Below are positions 22,575 to 24,270 of a stretch of DNA of 64,000 nucleotides, piece by piece. Position 1 is the stretch's first letter. Every line of letters starts with the position of its first letter. A program made the translations under genes and the position numbers. The notes beneath the pieces were generated by a model. The model searched no databases, was not told where the DNA came from, and saw only the letters and a program-made list of their open reading frames with translations. Location: assembly GCF_988242995.1 (NCBI RefSeq), contig NZ_OZ547043.1; one strand, 5' to 3'.

Positions 22575-23030
22575 TTACTGAAACTCCTGCAAATTCCAGT
22601 TACCGATATCTGCGCCAGCGCCCTCCCCGTTTTCCTGACCATCTGCCCCCAGGGTATAAACATCAAACAGTCCTTTTTCACCCGGGCTGAGATACTGATA
22701 ATCATTGCCCCACGGATCTTTTGGCAGTCGTTTAATGTATCCACCGGTACGGTAGTTGCGGGAGTCCGCCATATTGGCCGGTTGCTGGATCAGCGCCTCA
22801 AGCCCCTGCTCGGTAGTCGGATAACGCCCGTTATCCAGTCGGTACATATCCAGCGCATTCTCCAGCGCCACGATATCGCTGATGGCTTTTTGCCGATCGG
22901 CTTTCTCTTTGTTGCCCAGCAGGTTAGGCACCACCAGACTTGCCAGGACGCCAAGAATAACAATAACCACCATCACTTCCAGCAGGGTAAAACCTGCCCG
23001 TGGTTTTTGTGTGCGGGATAACGAATTCAT
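22575..23030 (-). CDS. gspG: Type II secretion major pseudopilin G
   Basis: Prepilin leader followed by GFTLLEVMVVIVILGVL; start placed at the second Met to avoid the 11-bp overlap with gspF given by the track start (23057). Start uncertain. Confidence 0.8.
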   Translation of the reverse strand: MNSLSRTQKPRAGFTLLEVMVVIVILGVLASLVVPNLLGNKEKADRQKAISDIVALENALDMYRLDNGRYPTTEQGLEALIQQPANMADSRNYRTGGYIKRLPKDPWGNDYQYLSPGEKGLFDVYTLGADGQENGEGAGADIGNWNLQEFQ

Positions 23031-23046
23031 GTGATAACTCCGTAAA

Positions 23047-24270
23047 TTACATTCCAACCATATTGTTCAGTTGTAGCATCGGCTCGAGGATGGCGATGAC
23101 GATAAACAGCACCACGCCCGCCATCATCACCACCAGAGCAGGCTCAAACAGCCCTAACGCCAGCCCCACCCGGGTATCAAATTCCCGTTCCTGGTTGACT
23201 GCGGCCTGTTCAAGCATGGTTTCCAGTTCACCGCTCTGTTCGCCGGAGGCGATCATGTACAGCATCATCGGCGGGAACAGGCGCAACTCCGCCAGCGCGG
23301 CGCGCAAGCTGCTTCCTTCGCGGACGCGATCTGCCGCCAGCAGCAGTTGTTGCTCGACATAACGATTTGCCGACACGGCGGCGGCGGTCTGAATGCCTTC
23401 CAGCAGCGGAACACTGCTGGCGGTGAGGATGCTTAATGTGCGGGAAAAACGCGCCGTATTCAGTCCGCGCGCAACACGCCCCGTCACGGGCAAACGCAGC
23501 AAGGTTTTATCCCAGCGCAGGCGCATCGCAGGATTTTTGAGTAGCCGTTGCCCCAGCACCAGAAGCCCCAGAAAACCCGCCAGCCAGTACACGCCGCTGG
23601 CCTGTAACGCGTCGCTCATAGCGATGAGCATTCGGGTGGAGGCGGGTAGCGCGTGTCCGAGATGATCAAACTGTTCGATAATTTTCGGCACTACTGCCGT
23701 CAGCAAAATAGTGACCACGCCCGTTGCCACCACCAGCAGAACCAGCGGGTAGAGCATGGCCTGCAGCAGGCGTGATTTCAGACGCTGCCGCTGTTCGGTG
23801 TAATCCGCCAGGCGATTGAGCACCACGTCGAGATGTCCGGATTTTTCTCCGGCAGCGACCATCGAACAAAACAGGGAATCAAAGACGCGGGGATGTTCGC
23901 GCAGGCTGTCCGACAGGGTATAGCCTTCCTGAATCCGACTGCGCAGCGCCATTCCGAGGCTTTTCACATGCAGTTTTTCACTTTGCTCACTGACCGCCTG
24001 TAAGCAGGTTTCCAACGGCATTGCTGCCTGCACCAGCGTTGCCAGTTGGCGCGTGAACAGCGCCAAATCTGCCGCCGCCACGCGACGATGTGCGTGCCGC
24101 CGACGCTGCAACATCCCCCCTGACGAAGTATTCATCCGGGCTTCAATATGCACGGGGATAAGCTCTTTACCGCGCAACAACTGGCGGGCATGACGCGCGG
24201 AATCCGCCTCAATCATACCTTTGGTTTTGCGACCATTACGCTCCAGCGCCTGATAGTAAAACAGTGCCAT
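23047..24270 (-). CDS. gspF: Type II secretion inner-membrane platform protein F
   Basis: 407 aa polytopic membrane protein in the conserved position. Confidence 0.85.
   Translation of the reverse strand: MALFYYQALERNGRKTKGMIEADSARHARQLLRGKELIPVHIEARMNTSSGGMLQRRRHAHRRVAAADLALFTRQLATLVQAAMPLETCLQAVSEQSEKLHVKSLGMALRSRIQEGYTLSDSLREHPRVFDSLFCSMVAAGEKSGHLDVVLNRLADYTEQRQRLKSRLLQAMLYPLVLLVVATGVVTILLTAVVPKIIEQFDHLGHALPASTRMLIAMSDALQASGVYWLAGFLGLLVLGQRLLKNPAMRLRWDKTLLRLPVTGRVARGLNTARFSRTLSILTASSVPLLEGIQTAAAVSANRYVEQQLLLAADRVREGSSLRAALAELRLFPPMMLYMIASGEQSGELETMLEQAAVNQEREFDTRVGLALGLFEPALVVMMAGVVLFIVIAILEPMLQLNNMVGM

Follow-up and report, generated by a model that had tools for sequence, protein, structure and literature searches.

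The closest described relatives of the gene considered here, gspG, encode pseudopilins of type II secretion systems (T2SS). In Escherichia coli, GspG of the T2SS-beta (WP_001087296.1; enterotoxigenic strain H10407, enteropathogenic strain E2348/69 and E. coli W) is encoded in an operon of the order sslE (yghJ)-pppA-gspS-beta (yghG)-gspC to gspM. Vibrio EpsG (3fu1, 4lw9, 3gn9) carries leader peptides of 9–11 residues (for example, MKKMRKQTG), and the leaders of Klebsiella oxytoca PulG (5wda, 1t92) and of the T2SS-alpha GspG of E. coli K-12 are short, that of PulG having 6 residues. Type IVb prepilins (BfpA, TcpA, LngA) are longer proteins with leaders of ~15–30 residues (PMC4471445). Berry and Pelicic, in a review, put class III leaders as a whole at 6–26 amino acids, with those of the type IVa kind reaching up to 18, and consider the traditional leader length classes no longer valid (PMC4471445).

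We examined a 64,000-nucleotide stretch of contig NZ_OZ547043.1 (NCBI RefSeq assembly GCF_988242995.1), hereafter the window. A sequence-only reading of it had described a major pseudopilin gene with an ambiguous start and an unusually long leader. We find that this region is an ordinary gspG, the major pseudopilin gene of an E. coli T2SS-beta operon on the minus strand, a reading to which we assign a probability of about 0.93. Gene, start and product were already known, and thousands of E. coli genomes carry a correct annotation of them.

Identity of the gene

The window gspG translation is identical to WP_001087296.1, for which RefSeq/PGAP gives a 456-nt coding sequence (CDS) in the two genomes inspected (locus DNA identity 99.9% and 96.8%). 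Among complete E. coli genomes, 3321 of 5426 match the gspG locus, and wherever a match is full-length a gspG annotation is present, among the matches listed. Against TIGR01710 (GspG) the product scored 192 bits (cut-off 88.85) and covered profile positions 2–134 of 134; against Pfam PF08334 (T2SSG) it scored 144 bits (cut-off 21). Sequence comparison of the soluble domain returned the solved chains 3fu1, 4lw9, 3gn9, 5wda, 3g20 and 1t92 as homologues (E values of 1e-59 to 1e-43), and alignment to the full-length PulG chain 5wda began at query residue 14, which is Phe+1, the predicted mature N-terminus.

Operon context agrees. A collinear RefSeq record has the order sslE-pppA-gspS2-gspC-D-E-F-G-H-I-J-K-L-yghD (gspM), the T2SS-beta gene order, and window positions 18352-32383 are 97% identical to that record. 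The identification of the gene as gspG in the sequence-only reading is thus borne out by profiles above their curated cut-offs, by gspF and gspH as neighbours within a gspC–M operon and by homology to solved chains. Compared with the known systems, the window encodes the same protein as the E. coli T2SS-beta, in the same operon order. Vibrio EpsG is 73–79% identical by BLASTP, with the same G/FTLLEVMVV N-terminus (the slash marks the cleavage point) and the same soluble domain (E ~1e-59), whereas its leader is shorter than the 13 residues found here. PulG and K-12 T2SS-alpha GspG have the family and the cleavage motif in common with the window protein. Type IVb prepilins also have longer leaders and share the class of peptidase; by every test the window protein is a GspG.

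Translation start

In the mechanical list of open reading frames (ORFs), the longest ORF at the locus (22575..23057, minus strand, 160 aa) opens at a TTG, and its translation begins LECNLRSYHMNSLSRTQKPRAGFTLLEVMVVIVILGV. With the gspF stop codon ending at 23047, this ORF overlaps gspF by 11 nt (23047-23057), and it places 21 residues ahead of the Gly, and 22 ahead of the Phe, of GFTLLE. A 16-nt spacer separates the gspF stop from the ATG at 23030, whose product begins MNSLSRTQKPRAG/FTLLEV; with the Gly at -1 included, its leader has 13 residues. The arithmetic of the sequence-only reading (a 160-aa longest ORF, an 11-bp overlap, leaders of 22 or 13 residues) therefore stands. It had credited the 13-residue leader to a 'second Met'; the length is right and the name is not, since that codon is the first ATG and the 'first Met' is the TTG.

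The coding strand at the junction reads ...AAC AAT ATG GTT GGA ATG TAA TTTACGGAGTTATCAC ATG AAT TCG..., so that the TTG consists of the last two bases of a gspF Val codon and the first base of the following Gly codon. The 20 nt preceding the ATG were predicted to pair with the anti-Shine-Dalgarno sequence at -6.1 kcal/mol and those preceding the TTG at -0.9 kcal/mol, the latter a value equalled or bettered by ~77% of 20-mers in the operon; the TTG thus lacks a Shine-Dalgarno site. The chance of finding at least one in-frame ATG, GTG or TTG among the 12 open codons that precede the ATG, up to the in-frame stop at -39, is ~45%, which makes the apparent ambiguity of the start a by-product of longest-ORF listing. 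The 160-codon ORF is a product of that listing, and its TTG is fixed only through the Val-Gly codons of gspF. We also rejected a start internal to gspG: downstream of the ATG there is none before the cleavage site, and the next in-frame start, a GTG, falls five codons past the Gly codon.

We compared the DNA of this junction across eight orthologous loci (L003–L010; 74–90% identity) retrieved by exact-protein look-up. The ATG and the leader length of 13 residues were kept in all eight, the gspF–gspG spacer had the same 16-nt length as in the window in six, and GGAG was retained in seven (five loci have ACGGAG and two CTGGAG), with the stretch from there to the ATG varying freely. Upstream of the ATG, the frame was shut by an in-frame stop at -3 (L004), -6 (L005) or -18 (L007), and L008 and L010 contained no start codon there. 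Where a TTG persisted in the orthologues, it went with gspF C-terminal codons for ...MVGM or ...MIGI and a stop. Protein comparison gave the same picture: all relatives at 74–90% identity have a Met at -13, though leader sequences diverge: that of Edwardsiella tarda is MNLLSRAQKPRAG, that of Plesiomonas is MYSMPKIHRPASG, and other relatives have MYSFPRHYRHRAG, MYSSALPRRPHAG, MYLLSLRRKPDAG, MDSISLRSRPRRG, MYSVSPINRPHRG and MSLKRNSLKGQAG. Two relatives were called longer, one with 17 residues and an internal Met at -13 and one with 14. The sequence-only reading had looked to an orthologue alignment for a conserved start giving a standard leader of 6–8 residues; the start is conserved, and the leader that it gives has 13 residues instead.

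Four independent lines (the Shine-Dalgarno sequence, annotation, protein orthologues and orthologue DNA) thus favour the ATG, which is very probably the start of gspG. More generally, the starts of longest ORFs should not be taken for biological ambiguity.

Two side observations concern these comparisons. In the metagenome orthologue L010, gspF (257-1486) was called as two pieces of 349 and 42 aa, which points to a frameshift or to an error of assembly. Proteins of 166 aa that might pass for alternative forms of GspG arise from +1 frameshifts where gspG has five consecutive G (window 22646-22650) and are uninformative on the start; many of the Logan assemblies contain them, as do a few genomes at NCBI, and they are either assembly errors or real pseudogenes.

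Leader length

The N-terminus of the precursor has the features of a class III signal peptide, MNSLSRTQKPRAG/FTLLEVMVVIVILGVLASLVV: a basic hydrophilic leader, Gly-1, Phe+1, Glu+5 and ~20 hydrophobic residues. It scored 32 bits against TIGR02532 (IV_pilin_GFxxxE; cut-off 16.3) and 35.7 bits against PF07963 (N_methyl; cut-off 21.2). The leader is longer than those of its operon partners, which have 4 (GspI), 5 (GspH), 7 (GspJ) and ~9 residues (GspK, counted by eye on the N-terminus, the motif search having returned none). Among Vibrio relatives at 73–79% identity, leaders are mostly of 9–11 residues, with a few called at 14–27, some apparently over-extended. Sequences of the MRATDKQRG type, which we take to be the alpha-type GspG of E. 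coli K-12, have 9-residue leaders, and those of the MERRQRG type, presumably OutG-like, have 7.

To place this length within the family, we drew on a search of 1.84 billion 50%-identity representatives, from which 117 GspG-like proteins with a recognizable cleavage motif entered the analysis. Many representatives have over-extended N-termini, with called leaders of up to 285 residues, and we therefore also counted leaders conservatively from the Met closest to the cleavage site, as a lower bound, and restricted the set by total length (proteins of <=165 aa). The median leader was 19 residues as called and 15 by the lower bound; among proteins of <=165 aa the medians were 16 and 14, respectively. 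Leaders of <=8 residues made up 9–16% and those of >=13 residues 60–80%, even by the conservative lower bound. These lengths are approximate, GTG and TTG starts being invisible in protein sequences, and their direction is robust.

At 13 residues, the GspG leader falls within the published range of 6–26 (PMC4471445) and near the median of leaders predicted for diverse GspG representatives. It is long compared with textbook examples, with Vibrio relatives and with the minor pseudopilins of the same operon, and not compared with the family as a whole. The view that the leader is unusually long accordingly holds only in part: against PulG, OutG and K-12 GspG (6, 7 and 9 residues) and the operon's minor pseudopilins (4–9), but not against the GspG family, across which the '6–8 residue' rule for pseudopilin leaders, a generalization from model organisms, fails. 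Two further clusters with 13-residue leaders, in Edwardsiella tarda (L013) and on a metagenome contig (L014), have the same peptidase-gspS2-gspC to gspM architecture. A leader of 13 residues is characteristic of the lineage with clusters of the pppA-gspS2-gspC to gspM type and is no anomaly.

In both clusters, a protein with Ricin-B-lectin and metallophosphatase domains adjoins the operon (L013, 954-2822; L014, 12512-14068) where E. coli has SslE, and it may represent a different cargo.

Processing by PppA

The prepilin peptidase gene pppA lies within the operon. Its product matched Pfam peptidase A24 domains and, at E <= 0.001, no NCBIfam model. E. coli W deleted for pppA no longer secretes SslE, and in H10407 the deletion reportedly abolishes LT secretion as well (PMC3707838). 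This PppA dependence implies that the system, GspG included, works with its native leader, and we saw no sign of impaired processing; the sequence-only reading had raised the possibility that leader length affects this step. Because the minor pseudopilins share the operon with PppA, their leaders of 4–9 residues must be cut by the same enzyme. PMC4971541, citing Francetic et al. 1998, also reports that PppA processes prePulG, prePilE and prePpdD. These indirect arguments suggest that leader length is not critical for processing.

A conventional pathway would fit these data. Translation of GspG very probably begins at ATG 23030, driven by the GGAG in the 16-nt spacer after gspF, and yields a precursor with the 13-residue basic leader MNSLSRTQKPRAG and, after it, a class III signal peptide. 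The leader would remain cytoplasmic, judging from the family, while PppA would cut after Gly13 and N-methylate Phe+1. The 138-residue mature pseudopilin so released would then polymerize into the pseudopilus. Overall, the case matters little: the gene is correctly annotated, and the secretion system is experimentally functional.

Alternative readings

Some points weigh against the reading given here. In the sources searched, we found neither ribosome profiling nor direct protein data that would establish the gspG start. The frame leading from the TTG is open in the window and in L003, L006 and L009, so low-level initiation at the TTG is conceivable there. The N-termini of automatic gene calls, on which the family distribution of leader lengths relies, are noisy, and cleavage of preGspG by PppA is a step that we infer from the in-operon PppA and the PppA dependence of secretion. 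The open frame, together with the frequency of overlapping starts in operons, speaks for translation from TTG 23057, with translational coupling across the 11-nt gspF overlap and a 22-residue leader. We consider this almost certainly wrong, and the TTG was ruled out as the true start by the placement of the Shine-Dalgarno sequence, the orthologue stops and annotation: its own duplex is negligible (-0.9 kcal/mol), gspF codons GTT-GGA account for it, the extension is stopped in three of the eight loci and absent in two, the intervening bases vary as a spacer does and not as codons do, and the ATG is used by RefSeq and nearly all gene calls. Use of both starts, with a minor TTG isoform processed to the same mature protein, is also very unlikely. 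Ribosomes ending gspF 8–10 nt downstream could sometimes re-initiate, and an identical mature product would presumably meet weak counter-selection, but the same objections apply, and an extension that is unconserved in orthologues can have no conserved role.

The fixed length of the leader might be a specificity feature matched to PppA, which would explain why GspO does not replace PppA in T2SS-beta strains. In favour of this idea, the PppA-linked clade keeps a length of 13 despite sequence drift, whereas equally diverged Vibrio relatives vary from 9 to 16; both orthologous clusters examined with 13-residue leaders have the peptidase at the operon head; and whether PppA and GspO differ in specificity was left open in PMC3707838. 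We nevertheless regard it as unlikely: the same enzyme must cut the short leaders of the operon's minor pseudopilins and reportedly handles short-leader prepilins (PMC4971541); the lack of indels at 75–90% identity is a weak sign of selection on length; and an unexpressed GspO is a simpler explanation. We likewise think it quite improbable that the invariant leader was selected as a spacer or recognition feature tuned either to PppA or to the processing rate of the most abundant substrate; if true, such selection might be part of the reason that GspO was seen not to stand in for PppA. On GspG-beta leader length or processing, our literature search found no study, only work on PppA-dependent secretion and PppA activity on other prepilins. 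The fixed 13-residue leader of the T2SS-beta lineage is in any case usable for studying PppA versus GspO specificity.

Features of the locus and the wider window

Table 1 Coordinates, in the window, of gspG, its start and leader elements and related genes
Feature	Position	Strand	Support
gspG CDS (151 aa + stop), true gene model	22575..23030	-	RefSeq 456-nt CDS; TIGR01710; Pfam
gspG start codon ATG	23028..23030	-	Kept in 8/8 diverged orthologous loci
Shine-Dalgarno GGAG, 7 nt upstream of the ATG, in the 16-nt gspF–gspG spacer	23038..23041	-	Read directly
Leader codons, MNSLSRTQKPRAG: 13 residues, 3 basic, no acidic, Gly at -1	22992..23030	-	
Predicted prepilin peptidase site G/FTLLE (Gly-1, Phe+1, Glu+5)	22977..22994	-	TIGR02532; Pfam N_methyl
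TTG opening the longest ORF; not the real start; made by gspF codons GTT-GGA (Val-Gly)	23055..23057	-	
gspF (407 aa), last codons and TAA stop beneath the spurious extension	23047..24270	-	TIGR02120, 489.8 bits; RefSeq
gspH, minor pseudopilin, GTG start, 5-residue leader	22008..22571	-	GspH profile, 187.7 bits; RefSeq
pppA, in-operon prepilin peptidase, presumed preGspG-processing enzyme	29297..30106	-	Pfam A24_N_bact and Peptidase_A24; RefSeq PppA

The pseudopilin genes that follow gspG are closely packed. Both gspH (22571) and gspJ (21643) have GTG starts, and the gspH GTG lies 4 nt past the last base of the gspG stop, with 3 nt between. The pairs gspH/gspI, gspI/gspJ and gspJ/gspK overlap by 4 nt each. 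This spacing suggests tight translational coupling of the pseudopilin genes.

The gspG gene itself is no different from that of the known E. coli T2SS-beta; the flank of the operon differs from that of the best match to the gsp genes. Beyond gspM, the window (819-18400) carries a capsule polysaccharide locus of the kps type that is 99.8% identical to that of E. coli 042, and in the genome that matches gspFGH best, tRNA-Phe, yqgA and speC take its place; the window is thus a mosaic relative to that genome and E. coli 042. ARAGORN found no tRNA genes in the whole window. Elsewhere, a stretch of ~1.4 kb near yghO (window ~45685-47109) is absent from NZ_CP148331.1. By homology to NZ_CP148331.1, positions ~46300-55400 of the window hold a cluster encoding serine palmitoyltransferase (spt), an acyl carrier protein and a fatty acyl-AMP ligase, together with an oxidoreductase and second copies of lptF and lptG.
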